DNA of 64,000 nucleotides from an uncultured Thermodesulfobacteriota bacterium (GTDB lineage: Bacteria > Desulfobacterota > GWC2-55-46 > JADFVP01). Position 1 is the stretch's first letter. Every line of letters starts with the position of its first letter. The DNA lies in assembly GCA_964474975.1 (NCBI GenBank), contig CAYYUX010000001.1, positions 465 to 64,464 on the forward strand, read 5' to 3'. The translations under genes were made by a program, and so were the position numbers. Shown here piece by piece: positions 1-14,440 of this stretch. Below the pieces are notes generated by a model. It saw nothing but the letters and a program-made list of their open reading frames with translations. It made no database searches and had not been told where the DNA came from.

Positions 1-15
1 CGCGCAAAAAAGGCC

Positions 16-567
16 ATGAAGGCGCTGAGGCACACCCTGCCCCTGCAGATTCTTGTGACCATGGGCTGGTGCGATGCCAATAACATTACGCTCAAGGTGC
101 TTAAGGCCCTCTCAGGGCTGAAAGACATTCAGATTACCGTTGTCCTTGGCCCGGATTACGCCTTTACGAAGACAATGGAGTCCTTTCAAACATTAAAAAA
201 TATTACATTCCGCCATAAGGTTAAGGATATGGCCCCTCTTATGGCCTCATCGCATATCGCCTTCACGGCCCTTGGCACTACGGTCTACGAGCTTGCCTTT
301 ATGGGTGTGCCGCCGATTATCATATCCAATTACAGAGATGATGAGAAGGACCTGGCGGCGCTACGAAAACTCAATGCAGGGGTGTCTCTCGGTTTTTACG
401 GGGGCGTCTCCGATGAGCTGATACGAGGCGCGGCCACGAGGTTTATTGAGGACGCATGGTACTGGCGCGAGGTCTCGTCGAAGGCGTCGAGGCTTACAGA
501 TGGGAGGGGCGCATGGAGAATCGCCTCAATCATCGCGGAACTCTATGGACGGAGGGCACGCTCATGA
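16..567 (+). CDS. Probable C-terminal part of a PseG-like UDP-sugar hydrolase (glycosyltransferase family 28 C-terminal domain); 5' end outside window, the ATG at 16 is probably internal
   Basis: Translation (…IAFTALGTTVYELAFMGVPPIIIS…LAALRKLNAGVSLG…) resembles the nucleotide-sugar-binding C-terminal half of MurG/PseG-type enzymes. Its stop overlaps the next gene's start (ATGA at 564-567). Context is a flagellin glycosylation operon ending in maf. Confidence 0.45.
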   Translation: MKALRHTLPLQILVTMGWCDANNITLKVLKALSGLKDIQITVVLGPDYAFTKTMESFQTLKNITFRHKVKDMAPLMASSHIAFTALGTTVYELAFMGVPPIIISNYRDDEKDLAALRKLNAGVSLGFYGGVSDELIRGAATRFIEDAWYWREVSSKASRLTDGRGAWRIASIIAELYGRRARS

Positions 568-1514
568 GAGGCGGCGATAACACCGCGATGGCCGTAGAGA
601 GGCTTCACAATGGCCCGTCATTGGGAGCCCATAAGGGCTACAGGGTAGTGGATTGTCTGGAGTGCGGTTTTGCGCATATTTTACCACTGCCTCCGCCTGA
701 GGAGCTTGATAGGATCTACAGGGATGAGTACTTCACTCTGGAAAAGCCTGATTTTATCCGATACGCGCGCGAGGACAGAGAGTGGTGGAATGTTGTTTAT
801 GACGAACGCCTCGATGGATTTGAATCAATGCTTTCAGGCGGCAAGAAGAGATTATTGGACGTTGGATGCGGGCCGGGTTTTTTTCTTAAGAGGGCGGCAA
901 AGAGGGGTTGGCGATGCCTCGGCGTGGAACCATCTAAAGAGGCCTCAGCCCATGCGAAAGGCCTCGGTGTAAATGTTATCAACGGGTTTTTCAATGGCAG
1001 GACCATGGGGGAAGAGGGCCTTGCCTATGATGCCGTGCATATCTCCGAGGTCCTTGAACACGTAGCCGACCCGCTGGCCGTCCTTGAGGATGTATATGGA
1101 CTCCTTGACGACGGAGGTCTTGTATGCGCCGTCTCGCCAAATGACTTCAGCCCCGTACAGAAGGTGCTACGCAGAAGGCTCGGTCATAAGCCCTATTGGA
1201 TATCCGTGCCTCATCACATCAATTATTTTTCCTTTGAGAGCATGAAGGCCTTATTGATTAGGGCGGGTTTTTCCATAGCTCGCGTAAGGGCCACCTTTCC
1301 AATGGATTTTTTTCTCCTCATGGGTAAGGACTACGTAGGTGACGATGCCCTCGGCAGGGAGTGTCATAAAATGAGAACAAGGCTCGACATCATGCTGACC
1401 GACCCCGGGCTCAAGGGCTTTAAGGACGAGATGTACGCCCTTATGGCGTCTCATAATATAGGCAGGGAATTCGTGATTTATGGAGTCAAGGGGAGAGTCG
1501 GAATAAAAGGATAA
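564..1514 (+). CDS. Class I SAM-dependent methyltransferase with an N-terminal Cys-x-x-Cys/His segment
   Basis: Motif I LLDVGCGPGFF and post-I acidic residue, plus motif II/III (LAYDAVHISEVLEHVADP, LLDDGGLV). N-terminal 'YRVVDCLECGFAHILP' resembles the small zinc-binding module of sugar C/O-methyltransferases. The start at 564 overlaps the upstream stop by 4 nt; the ORF tool's longer start at 456 lies inside the upstream gene. Confidence 0.7.
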   Translation: MRGGDNTAMAVERLHNGPSLGAHKGYRVVDCLECGFAHILPLPPPEELDRIYRDEYFTLEKPDFIRYAREDREWWNVVYDERLDGFESMLSGGKKRLLDVGCGPGFFLKRAAKRGWRCLGVEPSKEASAHAKGLGVNVINGFFNGRTMGEEGLAYDAVHISEVLEHVADPLAVLEDVYGLLDDGGLVCAVSPNDFSPVQKVLRRRLGHKPYWISVPHHINYFSFESMKALLIRAGFSIARVRATFPMDFFLLMGKDYVGDDALGRECHKMRTRLDIMLTDPGLKGFKDEMYALMASHNIGREFVIYGVKGRVGIKG

Positions 1515-1525
1515 AAGGAGGGGTA

Positions 1526-2791
1526 ATGGGGGAGGTAATAGTAATGCTGCCGGAATCACTTCCCGTGGCAATCCCGCTTGTTGAGTATGTCTTCGGCAGG
1601 GAGGGCGGCAAGGCAGTGGATTTACTGATACTTGAGAAGCAGAGGGAGACCTTTGGAGATCTTATAGGGCAGTATGCGTTCAGAAAGGTATATGTCCTTG
1701 ACGAGGAGTACTACGGCGGCCTGAAAGACCCCGCCTCCCTTGCGTTTATGAGAAATAAGGCGATAAACCCTTACGATACCTCATATTTCCCTGTTAATAC
1801 CTTCAGGGCCAACGCCTTTCTCTTCGGCTCCATCATAGCGGGCGAGGCTCTTGCCGTCAACTCATCGTTATTTAACGTGAGAGAGAGCCTCCCCGAGACA
1901 ACATGCTCCCTTAATGAAGTTAAGATGCCCGATAGCTCTATTCCATGGGCGGCTGAAATCGCTACGATTCGCGCGGTTCTCGCCGAGATTATCCATACCC
2001 TTTCCCCCATGGAGGATACGCTGAAGGTCTCGGGGGAGCGGCCGAACCTCGGCATCCTCAAGGGCTTCGGCCATGACCTTGAGATATTCATGAAGTACGC
2101 ATACGGGATAGGTCCGGCCCGCGGCGCGCGGGTCCTTGATATCGGCGGCGGGCTTGGGTACGGGTCCTATCTACTCTCAAAATTCGCCGAAGAGGTCGTC
2201 TTTCTTGACAGGTCGGCTGAGACCACGGACTTTGTGATGGGAACATGGGCCGCCATCGCGCCGAACCTGAAGGCTGTATGCGGCGAGGCCTCGGATTTAA
2301 AGGGGTCTTACGGGGAGTTTGATACTATTTTTTTAATGGACGTCATAGAGCATGTGGAAGACCCGAAAGGGCTGTTACGGGACGTCAAGTCTCTGCTGAA
2401 GCCCGGCGGCACGCTCGTCCTCAGCACGCCTGAGGAGGATTATTACCCTTACCGGGTATGCCCGGCGGAGCGGCGCGGCGAGGCCGAGGCCGCGCTCATA
2501 GGCGATGCTATCTGGCCGTGGCACATACAGGGCCTCGGAGAGGCGGCTATGATGCCCATGCTCAAGAACTCCGGTTTTGAGGTGATAGAGAAAAGCTATC
2601 TTACCTACGTAAAGGGCCATGAGATAAAGAAAAGGCTTCGTACAGCGAGACAGTGCCAAGACTCTTTCGCCCTTTTCAAGGCGGCTGAGGATATAACAAA
2701 ATGGGATGTCGATGATTTCGGCCTTACAGCCATGCGGGACCCGTGTTTCTCGGCCGCGTCATATAACGTAGTTGCTAAAAAGGAGGCATAG
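1526..2791 (+). CDS. Two-domain protein: about 170-aa N-terminal domain of unknown function fused to a class I SAM-dependent methyltransferase
   Basis: C-terminal half has VLDIGGGLGYGSYLL (motif I), FDTIFLMDVIEHVEDP and LKPGGTLVLSTP. RBS AAGGAGGGG lies 4-5 nt upstream of the ATG at 1526 (alternative ATG at 1544). Confidence 0.65.
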   Translation: MGEVIVMLPESLPVAIPLVEYVFGREGGKAVDLLILEKQRETFGDLIGQYAFRKVYVLDEEYYGGLKDPASLAFMRNKAINPYDTSYFPVNTFRANAFLFGSIIAGEALAVNSSLFNVRESLPETTCSLNEVKMPDSSIPWAAEIATIRAVLAEIIHTLSPMEDTLKVSGERPNLGILKGFGHDLEIFMKYAYGIGPARGARVLDIGGGLGYGSYLLSKFAEEVVFLDRSAETTDFVMGTWAAIAPNLKAVCGEASDLKGSYGEFDTIFLMDVIEHVEDPKGLLRDVKSLLKPGGTLVLSTPEEDYYPYRVCPAERRGEAEAALIGDAIWPWHIQGLGEAAMMPMLKNSGFEVIEKSYLTYVKGHEIKKRLRTARQCQDSFALFKAAEDITKWDVDDFGLTAMRDPCFSAASYNVVAKKEA

Positions 2792-3883
2792 GTGCGGACA
2801 AGGGCGGCCGTGCTGGAAAAAAAGGACGCTCCACTGGTTATAAGGAAGATAGAGGTGGGCCTGCCGGGACCCGATGAGGTCCTTGTGAAGATGGATATGG
2901 CGGGGCTCTGCAGGAGCGACCTTAACGCCATTACAGGGCATACAAGATACAATATGCCCCTTGTCCTCGGTCACGAGGGTGCAGGCACGGTGGTGGATAC
3001 GGGCCGTAATGTCATTGGATTCAAAAGCGGAGACACCGTGGCCCTGAGCTGGGCCGCCTATTGCGGGAGATGCTATTTCTGCGAGCGCGGTGAGTCGCAT
3101 CTCTGTCATACCGTGGCGTGGCCGCGAGGCAGGGGTTTTCTCCCCGATGGGACTACGAGGTTTCGGGGCGGGAAGGCCGAGAAAATATATCACTTTAACG
3201 GCGTATCGTCTTTTAGCGAGTATACCGTTGTACACAAGACGAGTTGTGTGCCCACCCCGAAGGCCCTGCCTCTCTACGTTAGCGCGGCAACGGGGTGTTC
3301 TGTTGTAACGGCCATTGGAGCCGTATTCAGGACTGCCGGGCCATACCTTAAGAGCAACGCCACTGTTATGGTGGTTGGAGGCGGCAGTGTTGGGGCGGCC
3401 CTGTTGCAGGCCCTGAGGCTCAGGGGCGCGGGCAGGATTATCCTCATTGAAAAAGATGAAAAGAAGTGGAAGGCCCTGCCGGCGGATTACTATGCGCCGA
3501 GTATCGTATCTTTTGATATGGAGAGGCATACGTCAGGTATGGGCGTTGATATATGTTTTGACTGCGTGGCCTCAAAGGAGACTATAGAAAGGTCCATGGG
3601 GGCCGTTAGAAGGGGCGGAACGGTTGTAATGGTCGGCGCCCCTCATCCGAACTTGAAGATAGGGCTTAAGGCCGTTGATTTTCATCTTGAGAAGAGGCTC
3701 ATTGGTTCGCTTTACGGCTCATCAAATCCCCAAAGGGATATGCCCATGGTATTTGATTTTTACAAGAGGGGACTGCTTGACCTTAATGCCTCACGCGCGG
3801 AGACATACGGCCTTGGCGATATAAACCTTGCCGTTGAATCTCTTCGGGAGAAGGGCGGTAAATTCATCATAACATTTGATTGA
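2792..3883 (+). CDS. Zn-dependent alcohol dehydrogenase (MDR superfamily), GTG start
   Basis: Catalytic Zn ligands in CRSDL…GHEGAG, structural Zn Cys cluster CGRCYFCERGESHLC, and Rossmann motif VVGGGSVGAALLQA. Start abuts the previous stop (2789-2791 TAG, then GTG). Confidence 0.75.
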   Translation: MRTRAAVLEKKDAPLVIRKIEVGLPGPDEVLVKMDMAGLCRSDLNAITGHTRYNMPLVLGHEGAGTVVDTGRNVIGFKSGDTVALSWAAYCGRCYFCERGESHLCHTVAWPRGRGFLPDGTTRFRGGKAEKIYHFNGVSSFSEYTVVHKTSCVPTPKALPLYVSAATGCSVVTAIGAVFRTAGPYLKSNATVMVVGGGSVGAALLQALRLRGAGRIILIEKDEKKWKALPADYYAPSIVSFDMERHTSGMGVDICFDCVASKETIERSMGAVRRGGTVVMVGAPHPNLKIGLKAVDFHLEKRLIGSLYGSSNPQRDMPMVFDFYKRGLLDLNASRAETYGLGDINLAVESLREKGGKFIITFD

Positions 3884-3943
3884 AAGGCGGAAGCTCCGTC
3901 ATGAGGACGGTTGATGTTTTGTTTAAAAAAAAGGAGGACTCTT

Positions 3944-4636
3944 ATGAGGTTATTTCTCGATACAGCTGATATTAAAGAGATAAAAAAGGCAAAGTCGTGG
4001 GGGGTGTTAAGCGGTATAACGACAAATCCATCTATAATCGCGAGGCAGAAAAGAGATTTTCTCTCCCTTGCGAGAGAGATATGCGAGCTTGTTTATCCCA
4101 ATCCCGTGAGCCTTGAGGTCGTGGAGCGAGAGGCCGGTCCAATGGCGGATCAGGCCAGAAGGCTCGCCGAGATTTCGCGCAACGTCGTGGTTAAGCTTCC
4201 TGCCAATCCCGCCGGCATGGAGGCCTTGAACCTTATCCGCGGAGAGTCCATAAAGACGAACCTTACCCTTATCTTTTCTCCGACGCAGGCCCTGCTTGCC
4301 GCCATGGCCGGGGCTACTTTCATCAGCCCCTTTATAGGCAGGCTTGAGGACAGGGGCTATAACGGGCTCGGACTTATACGTGAGCTTATGGAGGCCTTTT
4401 CGCACCATGATACGGAGACGGAGGTCATCGCCGCGAGCATCCGTGACCCTCATCAGATAGTGGAGATAGCAAGGGCCGGTGTTCAGATAGCCACCGTGCC
4501 CTTTGTAGTGCTTGAGAAGATGCTCCTTAACAATATGACGGATATGGACCTTGAGAAGTTTTTAAAAGACTGGGAGGAGGTGCCGGGTCGTGAGCATGCC
4601 TTTAGAGAAGATATCAGAAAGGCCGCTGGAGCTTAG
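3944..4636 (+). CDS. Transaldolase / fructose-6-phosphate aldolase family (TalC/MipB-like small transaldolase)
   Basis: MRLFLDTADIKEI…SGITTNPSI…VVKLPANPAGMEAL…TLIFSPTQALLAAMAGATFISPFIGRLED are the hallmark blocks of the about 215-aa transaldolase/FSA family. Good RBS (AAGGAGG) upstream of the ATG at 3944. The tool's 3911 start is probably an artefactual extension. Confidence 0.7.
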   Translation: MRLFLDTADIKEIKKAKSWGVLSGITTNPSIIARQKRDFLSLAREICELVYPNPVSLEVVEREAGPMADQARRLAEISRNVVVKLPANPAGMEALNLIRGESIKTNLTLIFSPTQALLAAMAGATFISPFIGRLEDRGYNGLGLIRELMEAFSHHDTETEVIAASIRDPHQIVEIARAGVQIATVPFVVLEKMLLNNMTDMDLEKFLKDWEEVPGREHAFREDIRKAAGA

Positions 4637-5639
4637 GGCGGCCGTATTTAAGGGACCCGGGGAGCTTGGCATAAGGCGATGTAGCTTCGCGGGGATTAAA
4701 AAGAACGAGGTCCTTGTCTCTATAAAGGCATGCGGTATATGCGGGAGCGACCTTAATATTTTTCACAGGGATCCTCCTGTGCCCATGTACTGGGCGGGCC
4801 ATGAGATAAGCGGCGTCGTCGCGGAGCTTGGCCCCGGTGTAAGGGGTCTTAAGCGGGGTGCCCGCGTGTGCCTGTCTCCCCTTGTGCCATGCATGAGGTG
4901 CCGTCCCTGCAGGAGCGGCCGCGATAATCTCTGCGAGAACTCCACTTTTGTTAGTTTTAACCGGCCCGGCGGGTTTGCCGATATGGTGGCCCTGTCTGCC
5001 TCCAATGTCTTTGAGATACCTGAGGGAATGGGTTTTACGGAAGCCGTGCTCGTCGAGCCCTTTGCCGACGCCCTGCACGCCATATCCGTGGCAGGGAGGA
5101 TGGCAGGTAAAAGGGCGCTCGTAATAGGTTGCGGCACCCTGGGGCTGCTTACCGTCAAGGCCCTTTGTCTTGAGGGGGCTTCGTCTGTGAGCGTGCTTGG
5201 CAGATACCCTTACCAGAGAGAACACGCCCTGTCCATGGGGGCGGATAGGGCCATGGACCCGGAAGACGCCGCCTCGGGACTGCGTGACAAGGGACCCTTT
5301 GATGTGGTCTTTGAGACTGCGGGAGGCTTTGGGAGCGACTCCATTACATTGTCCATAGAGGCCCTTGCGGGCAGAGGCATAATGGTCCTATCAGGCGTGC
5401 ACTACAATACGCCGCGCATGAACCTCAAGGACCTTACAGAGAAGGAGATTCAGATAAGGGGCGCTCAGCGTTACAGAAAGAAAGACTTTAATATGGCCCT
5501 TGCCCATTTTGCCTCTGGAAAGGTAGAGGCGCGGGGGCTGATAACCCACAGAGTGAGCCTTGAAGACATTATGGAGGGCTTTGATATCGCCTTCCATAAA
5601 AAGCAGACAAAGGCCGTAAAGGTGGTGGTATGTCCGTGA
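4590..5639 (+). CDS. Zn-dependent alcohol/polyol dehydrogenase (threonine/sorbitol dehydrogenase-like MDR)
   Basis: CGICGSDLNIF…GHEISGVV catalytic Zn site, structural Zn CMRCRPCRSGRDNLC, and nucleotide fold LVIGCGTLGLL. 5' end overlaps the aldolase gene by about 45 nt; exact start is uncertain (ATG 4590 or 4596). Confidence 0.7.
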   Translation: MSMPLEKISERPLELRAAVFKGPGELGIRRCSFAGIKKNEVLVSIKACGICGSDLNIFHRDPPVPMYWAGHEISGVVAELGPGVRGLKRGARVCLSPLVPCMRCRPCRSGRDNLCENSTFVSFNRPGGFADMVALSASNVFEIPEGMGFTEAVLVEPFADALHAISVAGRMAGKRALVIGCGTLGLLTVKALCLEGASSVSVLGRYPYQREHALSMGADRAMDPEDAASGLRDKGPFDVVFETAGGFGSDSITLSIEALAGRGIMVLSGVHYNTPRMNLKDLTEKEIQIRGAQRYRKKDFNMALAHFASGKVEARGLITHRVSLEDIMEGFDIAFHKKQTKAVKVVVCP

Positions 5640-6880
5640 ATGTAGCAGGGAAAAAAATACTTGTAATATCAGGGGGCGTAGAGGCCCTGCCCATCATTGA
5701 GAAGGCAATTGATATGGGCCTTTATGTCCTTGTATCTGACGGCGATATGTCTGCCCCGGGCCTTGCCCTTGCCCATGAGGCAATTATCGCCAGCACATAC
5801 GACGCGGAAAAGACCCTGGAGCTTGCCCGTTCCACGGACCCCAACAGGCGTATAGCGGGCGTTATATCGGCGGCCGCCGATGTGCCCCGAACCGTTGCCC
5901 TCGTGGCCGATGCCCTGGGGCTCCCGGGGCCTTCACCCCGCTCGGCGCTCCTTGCAGGCAACAAGTTTCTTATGAAGATGGCCTTTAAGGATATGGGGCT
6001 GGCCGTGCCGTGGTTTGCCATGATAAACGGCCCTGACGATTTAAAGGCCCTTACACGCGGCTCGGCCAAGGCCTTTGTTGTAAAACCCGTTGACAGCCGG
6101 GGCGCGCGCGGTGTAATTCGGCTTACGAAGGATGTTGACTGCGGATGGGCCTTTTTTGAGGCAAAAAAGAACGCGCCATCAGGCGCTGTAATGGTCGAGG
6201 AATGGATAGACGGGATACAACTCAGCACAGAGTCCGTTGTGGCCGGGGGGACCGTGGCCACACCGGGATTATCTGAGAGAAATTACGAGTATATCGAGAG
6301 GTTCGCCCCATATGTCATAGAAAACGGCGGCGACCTTCCGGCCCGTCTTGAAGAGCAGACACTCAAGGCCCTCAACGAGCTGATACTCGGCGCGGCGCGT
6401 GCCTTTGGCATTGATGACTGGACCATAAAAGGCGATATCGTCTTGAGCGATAAAGGCCCCGTCATCATAGAGGCCGCGCCGAGGCTGAGCGGCGGTTATT
6501 TCTGCACTCACACCATACCCCTCTCATCGGGCGTCGATATTGTCGAGGCGGCCATACTGCTCGCGTTGGGCATAAAAGTATCTGTAGCGGATTACAACCC
6601 CAAATTCACCAAATTCATCTCGCAGAGGTTCTGGTTCCCCGAAGAAGGGCTCGTTAAAGAGGTATGCCGAAAATCGGGCCTTGAGTCCATGGCCGGGCTT
6701 GAGATGATGAGACTGCATGTGAGAGAAGGCGATACCATCTCTCCCATGGTCTCGCATCCGTCCCGGGCCGGGATGGTTATCACATCAGGGCGCTCAAGAG
6801 AGGAGGCCGTGGCCCGGGCAAGCGATGCCATCTCCGCTGTGAAAATAATAACTGAAAAACCCATGAGGATGGCGCGGTGA
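5630..6880 (+). CDS. ATP-grasp domain ligase (carboxylate-amine ligase type)
   Basis: N-terminal pre-ATP-grasp Rossmann-like region (KILVISGG…), central ATP-grasp fold (…AFVVKPVDSRGARGVIRL…MVEEWIDGIQLSTE…) and a C-terminal substrate domain. Start overlaps the upstream stop (ATG…TGA overlap at 5630-5639). Confidence 0.65.
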   Translation: MSVNVAGKKILVISGGVEALPIIEKAIDMGLYVLVSDGDMSAPGLALAHEAIIASTYDAEKTLELARSTDPNRRIAGVISAAADVPRTVALVADALGLPGPSPRSALLAGNKFLMKMAFKDMGLAVPWFAMINGPDDLKALTRGSAKAFVVKPVDSRGARGVIRLTKDVDCGWAFFEAKKNAPSGAVMVEEWIDGIQLSTESVVAGGTVATPGLSERNYEYIERFAPYVIENGGDLPARLEEQTLKALNELILGAARAFGIDDWTIKGDIVLSDKGPVIIEAAPRLSGGYFCTHTIPLSSGVDIVEAAILLALGIKVSVADYNPKFTKFISQRFWFPEEGLVKEVCRKSGLESMAGLEMMRLHVREGDTISPMVSHPSRAGMVITSGRSREEAVARASDAISAVKIITEKPMRMAR

Positions 6881-8478
6881 TGATAAAGAGAATACTCCTT
6901 CTTCAGCCTAATATGAAGATAGCCACCTCGGGCCAGCGCATAGTCTATCCGCCCATGGGTATCCTCTATCTTGCCTCCGTGCTTGAGGTCGAAGGTTACA
7001 CTGTAGCAATACTCGATTGTCAGACAGAGGGCCTCGATAGAGATGCGCCTCTGCGCGGCGGTTATGTGGATGTAGGCATCCCCATGGAAGAGATTGGCGC
7101 GAGGATTTTAAAGTTCAAACCGGACCTTGTCGGCATAAGCTGTAATTTTTCCGTAATGGTCGGCTCCATGAACGAGACGGCAAGACTCGTCAAGGAGCTT
7201 TTGCCGTCTGCCGTAGTGGTGGCGGGAGGCAATCACCCCACTTCCATGGCAGAGGAGGTTATGGAAAACCAGGCCATAGATTTTGTCCTGAAGGGTGAGG
7301 CCGAGCTATCATTTCCCGCCCTTCTTGCCGCCATGGAAGGGGATTGCGGGGGCTGTGAAGACTGCGATTGCGGCAAGGAGAGCAAAAAGAGTAGCGGCAG
7401 TAATGAGGATAATGATAAGGATGTCAGCGAGCCTCTTGCCTATAGTGCCGTGCCGGGCCTTGTCTGGAGAGATGGCGGCGTTGTGGTAAGTAACGCTCAG
7501 GGACCTTTTATTAAAGACCTCGATTCGTTGCCCTTTCCGGCGTGGCATCTTTTTCCATACGAAAAATATTCCAGCTTCTATAAACCCAAAAAAGTCACCT
7601 GGGGTCAGCCGCAGGCCATGCCCACGGTTCTTACAACGCGGGGATGCGCCGGCACATGCGTTTTCTGCTCAGTACACAGGACCATGGGAAGAAAATTCCG
7701 GGCGAGAAAGCTTGACGAGGTCTTTCGTGAGATAAGGTTTCTTGTAGATACATACAAGATAAGAAAACTCATGATAATAGACGACAACTTCACCCATGAC
7801 AGGGCGCGGGCAAAGGAGTTCTGCGATGAGTTCAAGAGGCAGGGCTTTAATATTGAGATACACTTCATGGTTCTTGCCCTCTGGTGCATGGACGAGGAGC
7901 TTATAGATAAACTCGTGGAGATAGGATGCGTCTCAATGGGTTTTGCCATAGAGTCCGGCGTGCAGGACGTGCTTACAAAGGTTGTTAAAAAACCCCTTAA
8001 GCTTACAAGGGCCATGGAGGTCCTTCGCTACGCAAAGAAGCAGGGCGTCTTTCTTACGGGGACCTTTGTCATAGGACTTCCCGGTGAGACTAAAAAAGAC
8101 ATCAGAAGGTCGCTCTACATGGCGAACTACAGCGGTCTCTTTGATAGCAGAGAGATTTATATCGCTACGCCCCTGCCCGGCACGGAGCTCTTCGGCAGGT
8201 GTGAGAGCGAGGGGCTATTCGCCGAGGGCTTCAGCTACGATAGGCTTGAGGTGGTAAAACCCAATATCACGACAGGGGATTTTACCGCAGGTTACATCGA
8301 GACAATAGTCGAAGCCGACAGGACTCATCACCTTATAAAGTCCAACCCTGCACATGCCCCGCATTATATAGCCGACGTTTGGCGGCGAAAGAGGCCCATT
8401 TTCATGAACGTCCTTTTTGAGACATCAGGCATGTTCATAAAATACGATCTACTTAAGATGAAGGAGAGCTATCCGTGA
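6877..8478 (+). CDS. B12 (cobalamin)-binding radical SAM enzyme
   Basis: N-terminal B12-binding domain pattern (ILLLQPN…PPMGILYLASVLEVEGYTVAILDC…GISCNFSV…VVVAGGNHPT), then a radical-SAM cluster motif CAGTCVFC (CxxxCxxC). Contains an unusual Cys/Asp-rich insert GDCGGCEDCDCGKESKKSSGSNEDNDKD. ATGA overlap with the upstream gene. Confidence 0.7.
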   Translation: MMIKRILLLQPNMKIATSGQRIVYPPMGILYLASVLEVEGYTVAILDCQTEGLDRDAPLRGGYVDVGIPMEEIGARILKFKPDLVGISCNFSVMVGSMNETARLVKELLPSAVVVAGGNHPTSMAEEVMENQAIDFVLKGEAELSFPALLAAMEGDCGGCEDCDCGKESKKSSGSNEDNDKDVSEPLAYSAVPGLVWRDGGVVVSNAQGPFIKDLDSLPFPAWHLFPYEKYSSFYKPKKVTWGQPQAMPTVLTTRGCAGTCVFCSVHRTMGRKFRARKLDEVFREIRFLVDTYKIRKLMIIDDNFTHDRARAKEFCDEFKRQGFNIEIHFMVLALWCMDEELIDKLVEIGCVSMGFAIESGVQDVLTKVVKKPLKLTRAMEVLRYAKKQGVFLTGTFVIGLPGETKKDIRRSLYMANYSGLFDSREIYIATPLPGTELFGRCESEGLFAEGFSYDRLEVVKPNITTGDFTAGYIETIVEADRTHHLIKSNPAHAPHYIADVWRRKRPIFMNVLFETSGMFIKYDLLKMKESYP

Positions 8479-8508
8479 TACAGGGCTTTTTATCGGGGGG
8501 ATTATAAG

Positions 8509-10575
8509 ATGGCGGGGTTGTCTCTTTACGCTCTTTTTCACTGCAACCTTGCCTTCTCGCTTATAGGGAGAGAAGAGTTCAGGGCGGTTATCAAGAGGTG
8601 CTATCGTCCGTTGCTTGAGTTAGCCGGGGAGGGGCTTCCCATTGGTATAGAGATGAGCGCATGGACCCTTCGTCAGGTTCATCAACTTGAGCCTGATTTC
8701 ACAAGGAGGCTCAGCGATTTATGGGGGGCGAAGAGGCTGAGTTTCATCGGCTCGGGTTACGCCCAATCCATAATGCCGCTGATACCGGCAGAGGTGAACC
8801 GCTGGAACCTGAGGCTCGGCAATAAGTACTATGAGCAGATACTTGGCAGGGCCCCGAGCATTGCCCTTGTAAACGAGCAGACTTTTTCATCGGGGCTTGT
8901 AGGCCTTTATAAAGAGGCCGGCTACGAGACCATTATCATGGACTGGAATAATTCATGCCGTCATAAGAATTTTTCAAATCAAAGATTGTACTCTCCTCAG
9001 AGGGCCGCGGGAAGGTCGCCCGGTGAGGAGATAGGGCTCCTTTGGTCTCACTCCATCGCCTTTCAGAAGTTCAGTCGGTGCGTTCACGGCGAGTTTTCAC
9101 AAAAAGAATATATGGATTATCTTCTCTCCCATCATGAAGAGGGCGAGGAGAGGGCCTTTGTCGCCTACTCCAACGATGCCGAGGTCTTTGATTTTTGCCC
9201 CGGCAGAGGGGAGTCTCCGCGAGGCGACTTTGAGAGGGTAAGGGAGCTGTTAAAGGGGATAATGGACGAGAAGAGATTCGTCCTCTTAACACCTGAGGAA
9301 ATTTTAAATAAATTCAAGCCAGACCCATCTGCCGGACCCATGAGACTTGAGTCCGTTGAGACCCCCGTGGTCTCCAAGAAGCAGGAGAGGTATAACCCCG
9401 TCAGGTGGTCTGTAACGGGAAGGGACAGCGCCCATATAAACGCGCGGTGTCATACTTTGTATAAAAGGCTTGAGGCAATCTTCAGAGATGGAGGCGTAAA
9501 AGAAAAAGATATATTACGTGAAAAACTCTGCGAGTTCTGGGGCTCTGATTTCAGGACAAATACCTGCGACGACAAGCTCCGGTACTTTAACGAATCCATG
9601 GGGTGGCTGAGTCTTGAGACGGAACGCCTCCTGAGAGAGGCAGGGCTTGATGTGACCGAAGCGCTCCGCCCTTCCGAAGTATTCAGCGTTACAAAAGAGA
9701 GGGCTTCCGCGGGCATGGTCTTATGCGGCGCGGGTCTTTGCAGAGGGCCGTGGCCGGGGCAGTCTGTCAGGGGCTTTAACGCACTTGAGGTGGACGATGA
9801 TAAAAGGCGGGTGACTATCCGCGCACAAGAAGTGGAGCTGACCCTATTAAAAGACAGGGGGCTGGCCCTTTCTTCGGCGTCCTTTCCGGGGATTTCGGAT
9901 AAAGCTCTACTCGGCACCCTCGGCCACGGGTATTTTGATTCCATTGAACTCGGCGCGGATTTTTTTTCCGGCCACCTTATACATACGAGCCGGGACGGGG
10001 TAAAGACTACGGATCTTTGCCCCGCGCCTCACACTATCAGGGAAGATAGCGGCGGGCTGAGTATCTCCTCGGACATCGAGACACCCATAGGCCTCCTTGA
10101 AAAGACTTATCATATTCCGCGCCGCGGGGCGGAATTCTCCCTTACTTACAAGATAAAGGCCCCGGCCCTTCAGGCCTCAAGCCTCCGTCTCGGCATATTT
10201 ACCTTCATGCCCGAGGCATTTGATGTAGATGAGCTTTGGTTTGAAACGGTAAACGGCGGAATGGGGCCTGAGAGGTTTTATCTGAAGGGGCACAGGCTCT
10301 CTCACGACGAGCCCGTGAGCCCGGCCATCTCGGCATCGGGATGCCTCGGAGCCACAGAGGGATGGGTGGCCTTTGGCGATACAGAGAAAAGTCTTATCAT
10401 CAGCTCGGAGAGGCGTTTTGTACACACTGTACCCATGATAAATTACAGGGAATCCGGTGACAAGTTTTTCCTTCGCCTCTATCATTCCGCGGGAGAGCTT
10501 GATGATACCTCGTACTGGCTGTGGCGCGGAAGCAATGAAGTAACATTTATCATAAGGGCCAAGGGTCCGGCGTGA
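8509..10575 (+). CDS. Large (688 aa) protein with an N-terminal glycoside-hydrolase-family-57-like domain; catalytic role uncertain
   Basis: N-terminus 'LYALFHCNLAFSLIGREEFRAVIKRCYRPLLELAGE…IIMDWNN' parallels the GH57 'hNHQPxxNF…FEEAYEKCYxPxLExL…VIVDDYHF' blocks. The His-Gln-Pro signature is replaced by His-Cys-Asn. The remaining about 450 aa are unassigned. Fold similarity was judged by eye only. Confidence 0.4.
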   Translation: MAGLSLYALFHCNLAFSLIGREEFRAVIKRCYRPLLELAGEGLPIGIEMSAWTLRQVHQLEPDFTRRLSDLWGAKRLSFIGSGYAQSIMPLIPAEVNRWNLRLGNKYYEQILGRAPSIALVNEQTFSSGLVGLYKEAGYETIIMDWNNSCRHKNFSNQRLYSPQRAAGRSPGEEIGLLWSHSIAFQKFSRCVHGEFSQKEYMDYLLSHHEEGEERAFVAYSNDAEVFDFCPGRGESPRGDFERVRELLKGIMDEKRFVLLTPEEILNKFKPDPSAGPMRLESVETPVVSKKQERYNPVRWSVTGRDSAHINARCHTLYKRLEAIFRDGGVKEKDILREKLCEFWGSDFRTNTCDDKLRYFNESMGWLSLETERLLREAGLDVTEALRPSEVFSVTKERASAGMVLCGAGLCRGPWPGQSVRGFNALEVDDDKRRVTIRAQEVELTLLKDRGLALSSASFPGISDKALLGTLGHGYFDSIELGADFFSGHLIHTSRDGVKTTDLCPAPHTIREDSGGLSISSDIETPIGLLEKTYHIPRRGAEFSLTYKIKAPALQASSLRLGIFTFMPEAFDVDELWFETVNGGMGPERFYLKGHRLSHDEPVSPAISASGCLGATEGWVAFGDTEKSLIISSERRFVHTVPMINYRESGDKFFLRLYHSAGELDDTSYWLWRGSNEVTFIIRAKGPA

Positions 10576-10599
10576 CCCCCTTAAGAGACGGGAGTTGAG

Positions 10600-12516
10600 A
10601 TGAGTATATTCGAGAAAAACTACGATGTAATCGCGCAAAAAGACAGTATCCTCGCCGATAGGCTCCGTGCCTTTAGCGGCGAGAGGGCCTCTGTCGAGCG
10701 GGCCGCCAATAAAGAGTTTGTACTGCGCTTCAAGGGCCGTCTCTTTAATAGCGCTTACGGGCCATGGAAGGAGGCATCCCTGCAGGCAGAGGAGATAATG
10801 AACAAAAAAGCGGACTGTGTGGCCCTCTTCGGCCTTGGTTGCGGCTACCTGCTTCGCACCCTTTTGAAGTTGGAGACAAAAAAGATATTTATTTTCGAGC
10901 CTTCCATGGAGATACTTACAGGCGTGCTGGAAAAAATAGACCTTAGCTCTGAGCTGAAGGGGCAGAATGTTTTCCTTGCCAATTATATAGGGCCTTTTGT
11001 CTCATGGATTCAGCGCTTTACCGAGGGCTTCGATAATATCATAGGCTACCATACCATGCCTTACAGATTGACCTTTCCCCATGAGCTAAGGGATTTCATG
11101 GTTAAGATAGAGAACGCCCATACCTCGCAGAAGGTCGGCATAAAGACGGAGATAGATTCAAGGGTGGACTGGCTGAAAAATTATTTTTCCAATCTAGAGT
11201 CATTCTTTACTTATCCCTCAGTAGACGTCCTTACGGAGAGGTTAAAGGGAATTCCCATGATCATCGTAGGCGCGGGGCCGTCTCTCAGTAAAAACGCCGC
11301 CCTCCTCGCGGAAATAAAAGACAAGGCCTTTATAGTATCGGCCATTACGGCCTATAAGAGCCTCTTGAAGTTAGGCGTTGTCCCCCATGCCGTGATAGCC
11401 GGGGAAAAGGTAGACCTTGACGAGTATTTTGACGGCGGCGAGCCCGATAGAGAGATTCGTCTCATCTTATCAGAGGTCTCTCACCCGGCAATGTTCCGTA
11501 GAGAGGCCAGCGGTAAATTTATCTTTTACAGCCCCTATATAGCCCTCAGCCTCGAGCAGGCAAGCCTCTGGGGAAGCTCCTCCTTTGTATCAATAGGAGG
11601 GTCTGTAACTACGGCCATTTTTGACATGGGCGTCAAGTTCGGCTGTGACCCCATTGTTTTTATCGGACAGGACCTTGCCTTTGAGAATGGACATAGTCAC
11701 GCGTCGGGAGGTGTTTATGACGGGCAGAGGGTCGTTATTGATAAAGAAAGGGGGGTTGTTGAGGTAAGAGAACACTATATTTCCGGCCATAAGCGCACTA
11801 TGCGCCACAAGCTTCAGTGGCTTAAGGATATTGAGGGCAAACCTGTTGCGAGTAAATATGACTGGGTTACCTTTCACCAGTGGTTTGAGCGTTATATGAT
11901 TCTTCTGAAAGAGGAATACCCCGATATACGTGTCGTTAACGCCACTGAAGGCGGCGCCTTTATAAAGGGCATGGAGCATAAGCCCCTTAAAGAGGTTATC
12001 TCAAAATATATCCTTGATCCCGAGCCCGTGGAGGATATTCTTGCTTCTGCGGCGGCCATGCGTCCCGAGGTGGATACGGCAGGTCTTGTAGAGGCCTTTA
12101 AGAGACTGGAGCTGAATGTAGCCCTTGTCTCAAAACTTTCATCGCAGATTGTAGCAGAGGCGGAAAAGATGCGGACAGCCTTTCAGATGAAAGGCCTTCG
12201 CACAGAACTTGGCGATAACCTTGGGAAGATAAGAAAGAAGGAGAAAAAACTTTTTAATGCCGCCCGCAAGGTAGCTTTTCTATGGGAGGCCCTTGTGGAG
12301 TACACCTACGACCTTAAGAGCTACCTTAAAGAGGCAGTTGACCGCTCCACGGAAGATCAGTTCAGTAAAGACATCGAGCGTACGATACGCACATACACGG
12401 AGGTGAGAAAGAAATGCGATCTCTTCGCCCCCATGGTGCGTGAGGGCCTTTCGTATGTAAGGCTTCTTCATGAGAGGTCAGCTCAGGACCGGCCCGTAGC
12501 CGTTAATCATAGATAA
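10600..12516 (+). CDS. maf: Motility accessory factor (Maf family, DUF115/MptE-like) - flagellin nonulosonic-acid glycosyltransferase
   Basis: Characteristic Maf N-terminus MSIFEKNYDVIAQKDSILADRLRAF. Central MptE-like domain with the IVGAGPSL motif. About 640 aa in length, located immediately upstream of the flagellin locus. Confidence 0.75.
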   Translation: MSIFEKNYDVIAQKDSILADRLRAFSGERASVERAANKEFVLRFKGRLFNSAYGPWKEASLQAEEIMNKKADCVALFGLGCGYLLRTLLKLETKKIFIFEPSMEILTGVLEKIDLSSELKGQNVFLANYIGPFVSWIQRFTEGFDNIIGYHTMPYRLTFPHELRDFMVKIENAHTSQKVGIKTEIDSRVDWLKNYFSNLESFFTYPSVDVLTERLKGIPMIIVGAGPSLSKNAALLAEIKDKAFIVSAITAYKSLLKLGVVPHAVIAGEKVDLDEYFDGGEPDREIRLILSEVSHPAMFRREASGKFIFYSPYIALSLEQASLWGSSSFVSIGGSVTTAIFDMGVKFGCDPIVFIGQDLAFENGHSHASGGVYDGQRVVIDKERGVVEVREHYISGHKRTMRHKLQWLKDIEGKPVASKYDWVTFHQWFERYMILLKEEYPDIRVVNATEGGAFIKGMEHKPLKEVISKYILDPEPVEDILASAAAMRPEVDTAGLVEAFKRLELNVALVSKLSSQIVAEAEKMRTAFQMKGLRTELGDNLGKIRKKEKKLFNAARKVAFLWEALVEYTYDLKSYLKEAVDRSTEDQFSKDIERTIRTYTEVRKKCDLFAPMVREGLSYVRLLHERSAQDRPVAVNHR

Positions 12517-12691
12517 ATGGAAGCGGAGTCCATCAAGCCCTCCCCGCTGTCCATGAATGAGTTTAAAATTACAATGAAGGAAATCCTTGAAAATCCCGGA
12601 AAACTAAAAATCATGTTCTTATTTTTTTGTCTTCGCTAATTAACGTGGGCATTATTATGTGCTTCCATGGCAGATAAAGAAGGAGCCTGTT

Positions 12692-13297
12692 ATGACGGAT
12701 ATATACCTTGACGATACGAGGCTGGAGATAGGTGGCGCTGACGCCGCATCTACTATCGGCGATATTATTGTGGCTGTGGAAGAGGACCTTAAACCCTTCC
12801 GGCGTTTTATTCAGGAGCTATGGCTCGATGGCTTTAATGCGGGTATCGGATGGAAGGATACCGTGGCCGTCAATGAGCCTTTTGAGCTATATGGAGAGCT
12901 AAAGCTCTTTAGCGGCGATGTAGACCCCATAGTCCTGAAAGGGATTTATACGGTGAGTGAGTATATTGATTTTATTTGTACTCTCATTAACGATACCTCT
13001 TCCGCCCTCAGACGCGGTGCTGGAGAAGTAGACAACCTCCTTGGAGCGATTATCGAGAGTACCGGAGAGGTTATCAGAACCATGGATTCACTCTACAGGT
13101 GCGGTCTATCCTATGAGATAGATATATTCAGAGAAAATCCCATATCCTGTTACGAGGCAATTTTAAGGAATATGTCGGAGCTGAAAGACGCCCGTTTGTC
13201 ACGGGACAATATCCTGCTTGCCGATATACTGCAGTATGAGCTCGGTCCGCTACTGATACAGATGGAGGAAAAGGTCTTTTACCGAAAAGATATGTGA
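12692..13297 (+). CDS. Hypothetical acidic protein (about 200 aa) between maf and fliC
   Basis: Intact ORF with a reasonable RBS (AAGGAG at about 12678) before the ATG at 12692; alternative upstream ATG at 12659. No motif recognised. Sits directly upstream of the fliC sigma-28 promoter. Confidence 0.4.
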   Translation: MTDIYLDDTRLEIGGADAASTIGDIIVAVEEDLKPFRRFIQELWLDGFNAGIGWKDTVAVNEPFELYGELKLFSGDVDPIVLKGIYTVSEYIDFICTLINDTSSALRRGAGEVDNLLGAIIESTGEVIRTMDSLYRCGLSYEIDIFRENPISCYEAILRNMSELKDARLSRDNILLADILQYELGPLLIQMEEKVFYRKDM

Positions 13298-13305
13298 GCG
13301 GTAGC

Positions 13306-13332
13306 TAAAGGTTCTTACCCAACTGCCGATAA
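13306..13332 (+). promoter_or_regulatory. sigma-28 (FliA) class-III promoter for flagellin
   Basis: TAAA(13306-13309)-N15-GCCGATAA(13325-13332) is an exact match to the TAAA-N15-GCCGATAA consensus, about 120 nt upstream of the fliC start. fliA is encoded in this window. Confidence 0.6.
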
Positions 13333-13453
13333 GGTTATTAAGGGTCCGGTGGCATATATGGCGGGAAGGGGGGGTCTCATAGAGATGCCTTTTGCCATAC
13401 GGACAAATAATTATCTGGCAGGGATGCCGTAAAACACTAAGGAGGGTAAGAAC

Positions 13454-14296
13454 ATGGCTTTAATTATCAACACCAACATTGCGTCACTACTCGCGCAACA
13501 GAACATCAGTTCATCGAACGCCCAGTTGAAGATAAGCGTTCAGAGGCTATCATCTGGTCACAGGGTCAACAGCTCTGCTGATGACGCCGCGGGGCTTGCC
13601 AGGGCGGATCAGCTTCGTAGCCAGTCCAGGATGATTCAGGCCGCACAGCGGAACGTCAATGACGGCGTCAGCGCCATGGAAATCAGTGACAAGGCCGCTG
13701 AGCAGGTTACGAACATTATCACAAGGATGGGCGAGCTTGCCGCGAGCGCCTCACAGGGTACTCTCGATAGCAATACAAGAACCTTTTTCAGTGATGAGTA
13801 TGACAAACTGATCAACGAAATAGACAGGATAGCGGGTACAACAGAGTTTGGAGGTTTTAAGCTCCTTAACGGCTCCATAACCTCGCTGACCATGTTTATC
13901 GGGTTCAAAAATTCATCGGATAACCAGTTAAGCGTCAGTCTTGTAGCCCTTACAAGCGCCGGCGCTACAGGTAATGTGGGCCTCAGCCTCTCTGCCGGTG
14001 CTCTCTCAGGTGTAACGGGCGCGTTGAACGCCCTTGACGCCGTAAGCGTAGCGCTCAACAGAGTCAATAGCGCAAGGGCCGTATACGGTGCTACAACGAA
14101 CAGGCTTAACGTTGCGCTTAATAACCTTCAGGTTACATTCACTAACTTCCAGGCCGCTGAATCAAGGGTAAGAGACGCTGACTTTGCCTCTGAGACGGCT
14201 ACCTTTACAAAGAACCAGATAATGGTTCAGGCTGGTATTTCTGTTCTCGCGCAGGCTAATACACTGCCGAGAAATGCGCTACAGCTCTTGAGATAG
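13454..14296 (+). CDS. fliC: Flagellin (short, 280 aa)
   Basis: Canonical N-terminus MALIINTNIASLLAQQN…LSSGHRVNSSADDAAGLA and C-terminus …QAGISVLAQANTLPRNALQLLR. Strong RBS AAGGAGGG upstream. Confidence 0.9.
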   Translation: MALIINTNIASLLAQQNISSSNAQLKISVQRLSSGHRVNSSADDAAGLARADQLRSQSRMIQAAQRNVNDGVSAMEISDKAAEQVTNIITRMGELAASASQGTLDSNTRTFFSDEYDKLINEIDRIAGTTEFGGFKLLNGSITSLTMFIGFKNSSDNQLSVSLVALTSAGATGNVGLSLSAGALSGVTGALNALDAVSVALNRVNSARAVYGATTNRLNVALNNLQVTFTNFQAAESRVRDADFASETATFTKNQIMVQAGISVLAQANTLPRNALQLLR

Positions 14297-14320
14297 TCTA
14301 AGGGCATTCTGACCTCTCTA

Positions 14321-14365
14321 CGGGTGAGGGGGCCGCCATGGCTTCCTCACCACCCGCCTTTTATG
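14321..14365 (+). terminator. Possible intrinsic terminator after fliC
   Basis: GGGTGAGG…CCTCACC inverted repeat (about 7-bp stem, 15-nt loop) followed by CCGCCTTTTATG. Weak U-tract. Confidence 0.4.
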
Positions 14366-14440
14366 ATTATGCTGAGCTGTAAACTGTTGGGCCGAGAGGG
14401 GTAAGAGGCGCTTGCCAATTTTTTTTTAATGGAGGACATC

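Follow-up and report, generated by a model that had tools for sequence, protein, structure and literature searches.

A short transaldolase set between two zinc dehydrogenases in a conserved flagellin-glycosylation island of uncultured Thermodesulfobacteriota

What would a transaldolase do among genes that decorate a flagellin? This question is raised by a locus in a 64,000-nucleotide stretch of DNA, hereafter the window, from an uncultured Thermodesulfobacteriota bacterium (GenBank assembly GCA_964474975.1, contig CAYYUX010000001.1, positions 465 to 64,464). There, a short TalC-type protein of 230 residues (Tal; 3944–4636, + strand), recognized through Pfam TAL_FSA, TIGR00875, PDB matches and an AlphaFold model, is encoded between two zinc-dependent medium-chain dehydrogenases/reductases (MDRs), ADH1 (2792–3883, +) and ADH2 (4590–5639, +), both of which carry ADH_N and ADH_zinc_N domains. 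An earlier reading made from the letters alone (the sequence-only reading) had assigned these genes to a sugar-modification operon and had suggested that the central enzyme may be an aldolase and not a transaldolase. The interpretation toward which we lean, tentatively, is that the gene codes for a true transaldolase, a paralogue given over to a conserved cassette for flagellin-glycan tailoring, in which it would take part in making a methylated polyhydroxy (amino) acid for pseudaminic acid (Pse).

That a TalC/FSA-family gene is flanked by two zinc dehydrogenases was borne out by Pfam and NCBIfam matches; 3944–5639, the interval singled out earlier, holds Tal and ADH2, with ADH1 lying just outside. 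Tal matches Pfam TAL_FSA with an E-value of 2.4e-49 (168.6 bits, cutoff 27) and TIGR00875 (fsa_talC_mipB) with 255.1 bits (cutoff 245.95). Since the TIGR00875 model spans both transaldolase and fructose-6-phosphate aldolase (FSA) members and does not separate their activities, Tal was aligned with solved enzymes. Its best solved relative is the T. maritima transaldolase (PDB 1vpx, 227 bits), and its best sequence and fold matches are the transaldolases of T. maritima, T. thermophilus, B. subtilis and T. acidophilum. The AlphaFold model of Tal (predicted local distance difference test, pLDDT, 94.2) adopts the (β/α)8 barrel fold typical of decameric transaldolases, which Foldseek superposes on 1vpx with a template modeling (TM) score of 0.95 and a root-mean-square deviation of 1.1 Å. 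Exact-sequence lookup of Tal returned no match, the nearest relative being 99% identical. Matches from Pelagibacteraceae (L013 and L014, 28% identity) were set aside as unrelated transaldolases.

Signature residues were read from a four-way alignment including the exact FSA sequence of 1l6w. In the columns of FSA Gln59 and Tyr131, Tal carries Glu58 and Phe130, the same pair as in the T. acidophilum enzyme TacTal (E60/F132) and in the T. maritima and B. subtilis transaldolases. Lys84, Asp6, Asn28 and Thr108 align with TacTal K86, D6, N28 and T110, the Schiff-base lysine being located on β4, and the phosphate-site triad R133/S165/R167, which corresponds to TacTal R135/S167/R169, is intact. These catalytic and phosphate-site residues are invariant in 38 aligned sequences, and Glu58, Lys84, Phe130 and the phosphate-site triad are kept in every cassette locus, including a divergent one (L020) described below. 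The double change E60Q/F132Y is said to confer aldolase activity on TacTal. PDB 4xz9 is this double mutant, captured with a dihydroxyacetone Schiff base and glyceraldehyde-3-phosphate. By every sequence criterion, the product of 3944–4636 is predicted to be a transaldolase, and the active-site comparison gave no support to the earlier suggestion of an aldolase. An FSA-type enzyme, releasing free dihydroxyacetone or condensing it with small aldehydes, would share the Pfam and TIGR families of Tal, whose relatives are indeed labeled "fructose-6-phosphate aldolase" in NCBI-style names. Nonetheless, such an activity is extremely improbable: the window protein and all its cassette homologues have Glu and Phe where FSA has Gln and Tyr, and Tal is 48% identical to T. 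maritima transaldolase versus 31% to E. coli FSA. With Glu58/Phe130, Lys84 and Arg133/Ser165/Arg167 all present, this reading is unsupported.

Is the gene part of a dedicated system or does it merely happen to lie here? Seventeen loci were fetched independently, all from metagenome-assembled genomes (MAGs) of uncultured Thermodesulfobacteriota/Deltaproteobacteria. Wherever the contig reaches, the core formed by a methyltransferase, ADH1, Tal and ADH2 is collinear in the 17 loci, at Tal identities down to 40–62%, and genes for an ATP-grasp ligase and a radical S-adenosylmethionine (SAM) enzyme come next in 16/16 loci of sufficient extent. The recurrence of this order is far beyond chance. Loci of sufficient length adjoin flagellin or Maf genes; upstream of the cassette are usually found PseB-, PseC-, NeuB/PseI- and PseF-like genes, a class-III aminotransferase, a Gfo/Idh/MocA oxidoreductase and PseG, and downstream a GH57-like gene, Maf, a DUF8042 protein, flagellin and FliD. 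In a search of 5.8 billion proteins, the Tal clade proved to consist of eight clusters 83–99% identical and ten more at 62–67%; outside it come the generic short transaldolases of unrelated phyla, numbering in the thousands and none above 55% identity. All clade members on long enough contigs share one gene order (methyltransferase, methyltransferase, ADH1, Tal, ADH2, ATP-grasp, radical SAM enzyme), and the system is rare, with about 18–28 protein clusters (90% identity) among the 5.8 billion. ADH2 is likewise cassette-specific, its homologue scores breaking off at 300 bits (44% identity) and resuming at 197 bits (≤39%) with nothing between.

The cassette also occurs in two variant forms. In the minimal locus L015 (3745–5171 and 6409–15302), genes for Gfo, a methyltransferase, ADH1, Tal, ADH2, ATP-grasp, a methyltransferase and the radical SAM enzyme lie beside flagellin and FlaG, and no Pse, GH57 or Maf gene was found within 10 kb. 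Upstream of this cassette, a Glu/Leu/Phe/Val-type amino-acid dehydrogenase was called as three adjacent partial genes. In L020 (Tal at 8314–8997) and L021 (51–734), orthologous ADH1, ADH2, ATP-grasp and radical SAM enzymes (49–65% identity) accompany a transaldolase which shares only 40% identity with the window Tal, against 53–58% with generic transaldolases, and which keeps the Glu, Lys and Phe residues as well as a similar C-terminal Pro...Phe extension. This protein could represent an independent recruitment or a replacement. Since a different transaldolase fills the same position in these two loci, the slot itself, and not just one lineage of the enzyme, is conserved and under selection.

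The frames are tightly packed: tal and ADH2 overlap by 41–47 nt, depending on whether ADH2 starts at GTG 4590 or ATG 4596, ADH2 and the ATP-grasp gene by 10 nt, and the ATP-grasp and radical SAM genes by 4 nt. The tal ATG lies 7 nt downstream of AAGGAGG, and the 60-nt spacer between ADH1 and tal holds no conserved signal besides this ribosome-binding site. A hairpin in that gap (3896–3910) was rejected as a signal; it is not conserved, and terminator-like matches numbered 13 versus 14.1 expected from shuffled sequence.

With this in view, a housekeeping role can be weighed. Tal could be an ordinary pentose-phosphate transaldolase which raises fructose-6-phosphate for UDP-GlcNAc and Pse synthesis, or the sole tal gene located here by chance. 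Its complete set of canonical catalytic and phosphate-binding residues, the TIGR00875 score above cutoff and the closeness of the L020 protein to generic transaldolases would fit such a role. The constant place of tal across lineages, between two dehydrogenases particular to the cassette and with frames that overlap, the clade-invariant replacements described below, the C-terminal extension common even to the L020 type and the L015 cassette without Pse genes nearby all speak against it, and we regard it as quite unlikely. Collectively, the discrete clade, the fixed gene order, L015, the filled slot of L020 and L021, the cassette-specific ADH2 and the overlapping frames argue for a dedicated gene, and tal is probably not a stray housekeeping copy, although no genome was searched for a second tal.

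A further line of evidence concerns the specificity of the enzyme, for which 19 clade members were compared with 102 other short transaldolases. Several positions which are invariant or nearly so among the latter are replaced throughout the clade. These are Leu31 by Ile, Ala57, which adjoins the catalytic Glu, by Leu, and Thr88 by Asn; after Arg133, Asp135 by Glu, Ile/Val137 by Arg and His/Gln139 by Tyr; beside Ser165 and Arg167, His/Asn168 by Asp and His171 by Gln; and further on, His196 by Asn and Gly202 by Asp. Clade members also carry a C-terminal extension of about 15 residues with an invariant Phe220. In the secondary structure of the model, most replaced positions are at the C-terminal ends of strands β2–β8 or in the loops that follow. 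Barrel topology would thus place the replaced residues on the catalytic face, notably around the distal anion-binding site. These are signs, drawn from sequence comparison, that the catalytic face has been remodeled and the specificity of the clade enzymes changed.

The two dehydrogenases appear to be different in kind. ADH1, class-III/NDMA-ADH-like, matches TIGR03989 (219 bits) and TIGR02818 (196 bits), both below cutoff; its best PDB match is the S-(hydroxymethyl)glutathione dehydrogenase 7aas, and it lies near class III and other primary-alcohol MDRs. Twelve aligned homologues keep its catalytic Cys/His/Cys and its four structural Cys, the one exception being the third catalytic Cys in L006 (SCS). 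In the same 12 sequences, a Glu or Asp ends Rossmann strand β2, aligned to the Asp of IIAVDID in 7aas and class I ADH, and ADH1 is hence predicted to depend on NAD. The conserved loop WPRG[RK]G of ADH1 was considered as an equivalent of the carboxylate-binding Arg115 of class III ADH and rejected: in the alignment with 7aas, the column of the arginine which we take to be Arg115 is Ala in ADH1, and the PRG motif, present in class I ADH too, is not specific to class III. ADH2, of the polyol, ketose-reductase or threonine-dehydrogenase type, matches a whitefly ketose reductase and sorbitol, threonine, galactitol-1-phosphate and L-idonate-5-dehydrogenases. Its zinc ligands (Cys/His/Glu and a second Glu) and four structural Cys are conserved in 10 aligned homologues. 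Both dehydrogenases have a glycine-rich Rossmann loop of the GxGxxG form. ADH2 carries Gly/Ala followed by Arg/Lys in place of the NAD-specifying Asp, a replacement that in MDRs suggests NADP(H), and is predicted to use this cofactor.

The cassette is part of a single plus-strand array of closely spaced or overlapping genes (window 1–15766), in the order PseG, two methyltransferases, ADH1, Tal, ADH2, ATP-grasp, B12-radical-SAM, GH57-like, Maf, flagellin and FliD; the genes of the array described next are all on this strand. The array opens with the C-terminal part of a PseG-like UDP-sugar hydrolase (16–567; TIGR03590, E = 4.9e-18, below cutoff), truncated by the window start, and a full-length orthologue holds the same slot in L001–L005. 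Two class I SAM methyltransferases follow, lying upstream as the earlier reading had it. The first, MT-a (456–1514; Methyltransf_23, E = 1e-22), is conserved in cassette loci and weakly resembles UbiG and the sugar C-methyltransferase TcaB9. As the last 112 nt of the PseG-like gene (456–567) fall inside its longest open reading frame and its orthologues are 299–330 residues long, its true start is probably downstream of 456. The second, MT-b (1526–2791; Methyltransf_23, E = 1e-16, residues 198–355), has an N-terminal region of about 190 residues without domain assignment; its PDB matches, to phosphoethanolamine N-methyltransferases and UbiG, are weak, and it is kept in all cassette loci, including the minimal L015. 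Past ADH2, at 5630–6880 as previously proposed, lies the ATP-grasp gene, coding for a carboxylate–amine ligase of the L-amino-acid-ligase type (ATP-grasp_3 and LAL_C2) with PDB matches to the L-amino-acid ligase BL00235 and to 4dim. Next comes a B12-binding radical SAM enzyme (6877–8478; B12-binding and Radical_SAM), probably a methyltransferase and conserved in cassette loci, whose best NCBIfam match, NF038361 (Sden_1168 P-methyltransferase family), reaches 237 bits, far under the cutoff of 575.

The remainder of the array includes a GH57-like protein (8509–10575; Glyco_hydro_57, E = 5e-17, residues 21–271, with a weak PDB match only, 1k1w) and a Maf/PseD-like flagellin glycosyltransferase (10600–12516; MptE-like, E = 1e-32, and Maf_flag10_N; NF050051 FlagModPseD, E = 1e-37, below cutoff). 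The interval that separates maf from the flagellin gene holds an open reading frame for a small 212-residue protein (12659–13297), in which no Pfam match was found and whose orthologues contain DUF8042. The position of this frame resembles that of the Maf-2 specificity factor GlfM in Shewanella, and by this analogy the protein is possibly a Maf accessory factor. The presumed glycosylation target is the flagellin (13454–14296), which has flagellin N- and C-terminal regions, has Flagellin_N/C in its orthologues and is 73–96% identical across the Thermodesulfobacteriota loci. It is followed by the filament cap FliD (14429–15766; FliD_N/FliD_C in orthologues). Past the island, a region of about 25 kb (16523–39913) has mainly flagellar functions and contains PilZ, MotA, two sigma-54 response-regulator activators with a histidine kinase, FliF-G-H-I-J-K, FlgD, FlgE and FliL-M-N.

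The setting is a flagellin-glycosylation island, as PseB/C/I/F/G relatives lie upstream in the homologous loci and Maf, flagellin and FliD downstream; the earlier reading also had the gene identities right. It had also been held that the module stands outside known nonulosonate pathways, and this agrees with what was found: no NCBIfam Pse model matches Tal, ADH1 or ADH2, none of the three fits the canonical PseB, C, H, G, I or F steps, and PseC-, PseI/NeuB-, PseF- and PseG-like genes are separate neighbors. In none of the cassette loci does an N-acetyltransferase of the PseH type (GNAT) appear within 10 kb, so that one amine of pseudaminic acid may stay free for acylation. An Aminotran_3 protein (glutamate-1-semialdehyde-aminomutase-like; NF004856, 432 bits) and a Gfo/Idh/MocA oxidoreductase are encoded between the PseF- and PseG-like genes in L001 (3136–5477), L004, L005 and L020. 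The cassette has no gene for a phosphatase, a kinase, an aldehyde dehydrogenase or a second nucleotidyltransferase.

Several flagellin glycans offer precedents for the kind of product expected here. In S. oneidensis, flagellin carries mono-N-acetyl-Pse (274 Da) together with a C9H16O7 unit and up to two extra methyls, in an sfm-dependent manner (PMC3765264; bioRxiv 10.1101/2023.12.03.569772). The sfmABCDE genes encode a NeuB-like protein, a thiamine pyrophosphate (TPP)-dependent IlvB-like carboligase, a short-chain dehydrogenase/reductase (SDR), a SAM methyltransferase and an ATP-grasp protein (PMC3765264). T. denticola is reported to have a nonulosonate bearing a 2-methoxy-4,5,6-trihydroxyhexanoyl group (PMC13439194), and C. 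jejuni 11168 makes a di-O-methylglyceric-acid Pse (PMC3958885). Through these precedents, the earlier proposal that a methylated polyol or acid is synthesized and then attached by the ATP-grasp ligase becomes plausible. The sequence-only reading as a whole is partly supported, right on context and general purpose and wrong on the aldolase.

A mechanism can be proposed on this basis. ADH1, as a class-III-like enzyme of the NAD type, would generate an aldehyde by oxidizing a primary alcohol, which may be an omega-hydroxy acid. Tal would then move a dihydroxyacetone unit from fructose-6-phosphate or sedoheptulose-7-phosphate to this aldehyde, adding three carbons and a 2-keto group, which ADH2, as an NADPH-type enzyme resembling ketose reductase and L-idonate-5-dehydrogenase, would reduce. 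The resulting polyhydroxy acid might be aminated by the Gfo/Idh/MocA and class-III aminotransferase proteins whose genes lie just upstream in full-length loci. The two SAM methyltransferases would add methyl groups at O or N, and the B12-radical-SAM enzyme at C, before the ATP-grasp ligase would join the acid by an amide bond to the free amino group of pseudaminic acid, and Maf would lastly transfer the decorated sugar to flagellin. This sequence of oxidation, extension and reduction is supported, although not proven, by the assignment of ADH1 to NAD-type primary-alcohol enzymes and of ADH2 to NADPH-type ketose reductases, and the resemblance of ADH2 to L-idonate-5-dehydrogenase fits the reduction of a keto-aldonic acid. 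An ATP-grasp ligase needs both a carboxylate and an amine. The lack of a phosphatase, a kinase, an additional nucleotidyltransferase and an aldehyde dehydrogenase mildly favors an acceptor aldehyde which is non-phosphorylated and may already bear a carboxylate.

Several points weigh against this scheme. We infer, rather than observe, which aldehyde serves as acceptor, in what order the three enzymes act and where the carboxylate comes from. The intact phosphate triad of Tal equally allows canonical phosphorylated acceptors, in which case the product could stay phosphorylated. The cofactor preferences predicted for ADH1 and ADH2 are read from one motif position, and the Aminotran_3 and Gfo/Idh/MocA pair is not firmly placed in the scheme. 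The status of tal as a paralogue was read from the fetched loci. Finally, the likeness to sfm is one of functional categories and gene neighborhood.

The aminotransferase suggests another arrangement, in which Tal and ADH2 build a polyol, ADH1 oxidizes its terminal alcohol to an aldehyde, the aminotransferase turns this aldehyde into a primary amine and the ATP-grasp ligase couples this amine to a carboxylate. The side chain would then be the amine partner, the carboxylate being C1 of pseudaminic acid or an amino acid, and Gfo/Idh/MocA may supply another carbonyl. The KdnB/KdnA pathway to Kdo8N, which converts an alcohol to an aldehyde and then to an amine on an ulosonic acid, is a precedent. 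This route would use more of the conserved genes, Aminotran_3 and Gfo/Idh/MocA being conserved beside the cassette with Gfo retained even in L015, and it would account for the cassette having no obvious carboxylate-forming enzyme such as an aldehyde dehydrogenase. However, the known flagellin examples bear acyl groups on sugar amines, the lack of a visible PseH leaves a free Pse amine wanting an acyl donor, and no Aminotran_3 gene is found within 10 kb in L015 and L018. We therefore judge this route unlikely, though worth keeping in mind.

The PseG product brings in a different acceptor. PseG frees an aldose in the same operon, and Tal could add dihydroxyacetone to this 2,4-diacetamido-2,4,6-trideoxy-L-altrose, or to another free aldose such as a deoxy-sugar, giving a C8–C9 ketose that the dehydrogenases would reduce or oxidize into a second sugar-like unit of the glycan. 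This reading has chemical appeal: the extra moiety of Shewanella, C9H16O7, has nine carbons, and remodeling affects those loops of Tal that surround its distal binding site. Against this, the island encodes no additional glycosyltransferase, its sole sugar-activating enzyme is a CMP-type cytidylyltransferase, and the ATP-grasp ligase, which acts on a carboxylate with an amine and has no use for a glycosyl donor, would be left without a substrate, which makes the formation of such a ketose very improbable.

One further locus touches on the chemistry of the cassette without containing it. In L018 (10001–13380), a Wzx/Wzy polysaccharide locus, an ATP-grasp gene and a GH57-like gene are adjacent (47% and 37% identity), and the locus further holds a split transketolase, a Gfo/Idh/MocA oxidoreductase and a methyltransferase. 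Enzymes that transfer C2 or C3 ketol units, together with an ATP-grasp/GH57-like pair, may constitute a broader glycan-tailoring theme.

To return to the recruitment of a true transaldolase into glycan tailoring, this interpretation can be extended into a bolder one, which is doubtful as it stands. The cassette transaldolase would have been neofunctionalized to transfer dihydroxyacetone from fructose-6-phosphate or sedoheptulose-7-phosphate to a non-phosphorylated aldehyde made by ADH1 (e.g., a carboxylate-bearing one or an amino-acid semialdehyde). This would open a new route to methylated higher-carbon sugar (amino) acids that serve as N-acyl groups on flagellin Pse, with a parallel, transketolase-based version in L018-like loci. 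If the role proposed for the cassette holds, transaldolase chemistry would reach from central metabolism into glycan tailoring, and nature would provide a transaldolase with altered acceptor specificity, of relevance to biocatalytic C–C bond formation. It would also aid the reading of unexplained flagellin glycan masses, such as the 236 Da unit of Shewanella. The gene families involved are ordinary, and flagellin-glycan cassettes with ATP-grasp ligases are already known. Acyl side chains of flagellin nonulosonic acids are likewise known; the enzymes that build them are largely unassigned, and the cassette provides a concrete gene set. Because the organisms, relatives of sulfate reducers, are uncultured, what these findings offer for now concerns annotation and the discovery of enzymes rather than physiology.

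How does this system compare with those already described? Among short transaldolases of the TalC/MipB type (subfamily 4, class I aldolase superfamily), T. maritima TM0295 (1vpx), B. subtilis YwjH (3r8r) and TacTal (3s0c) are in the same length class as the window enzyme, share its TIM barrel (TM 0.92–0.97) with 40–48% identity, and have the same Asp6, Asn28, Glu, Lys, Thr and Phe as well as the phosphate-site Arg, Ser and Arg. The window enzyme differs from them by its clade replacements, its C-terminal extension of about 15 residues and its flagellin-glycan context in place of central metabolism. E. coli FSA (1l6w) shares the Pfam and TIGR family, the fold and the Schiff-base lysine, whereas its Gln59/Tyr131/Lys168 are replaced by Glu58/Phe130/Arg167 in the window. 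A precedent for neofunctionalization is given by the sulfofructose transaldolase BmSF-TAL (8bc2-4/8c4i), a short transaldolase of similar fold adapted to a non-phosphate anionic substrate. However, it is only 33–34% identical to the window Tal and scores below the canonical transaldolases, and the genes that would mark a sulfo-transaldolase context (sulfoquinovose isomerase, sulfolactaldehyde dehydrogenase, transporter) are absent from the window.

At the level of gene neighborhoods, short transaldolases are encoded beside MDR polyol or polyol-phosphate dehydrogenases in pentitol/polyol catabolic operons (e.g., in Listeria). These operons carry a phosphotransferase system or a kinase together with Rpi, Rpe and Tkt, and they feed the pentose-phosphate pathway. 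Unlike in these operons, the partners in the window are methyltransferases, an ATP-grasp ligase, a radical SAM enzyme, Maf and flagellin. In the searched literature, no transaldolase is tied to flagellin or nonulosonate glycosylation, nor are a transaldolase and two dedicated MDR dehydrogenases described as the chain-building core of such a cassette. The sfm genes of S. oneidensis likewise adjoin maf and flagellin and combine a C–C bond-forming enzyme, a ketoreductase, a SAM methyltransferase and an ATP-grasp protein of about 412 residues. While in sfm the carbon–carbon bond would be the task of TPP-dependent IlvB-like and NeuB-like enzymes and the reductase is an SDR, the window has a transaldolase and two zinc MDRs, to which are added the B12-radical-SAM enzyme and the GH57-like protein. 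As to the product, the T. denticola and C. jejuni glycans resemble what the cassette is proposed to make, namely O-methylated polyhydroxy acids carried by flagellin nonulosonic acids.

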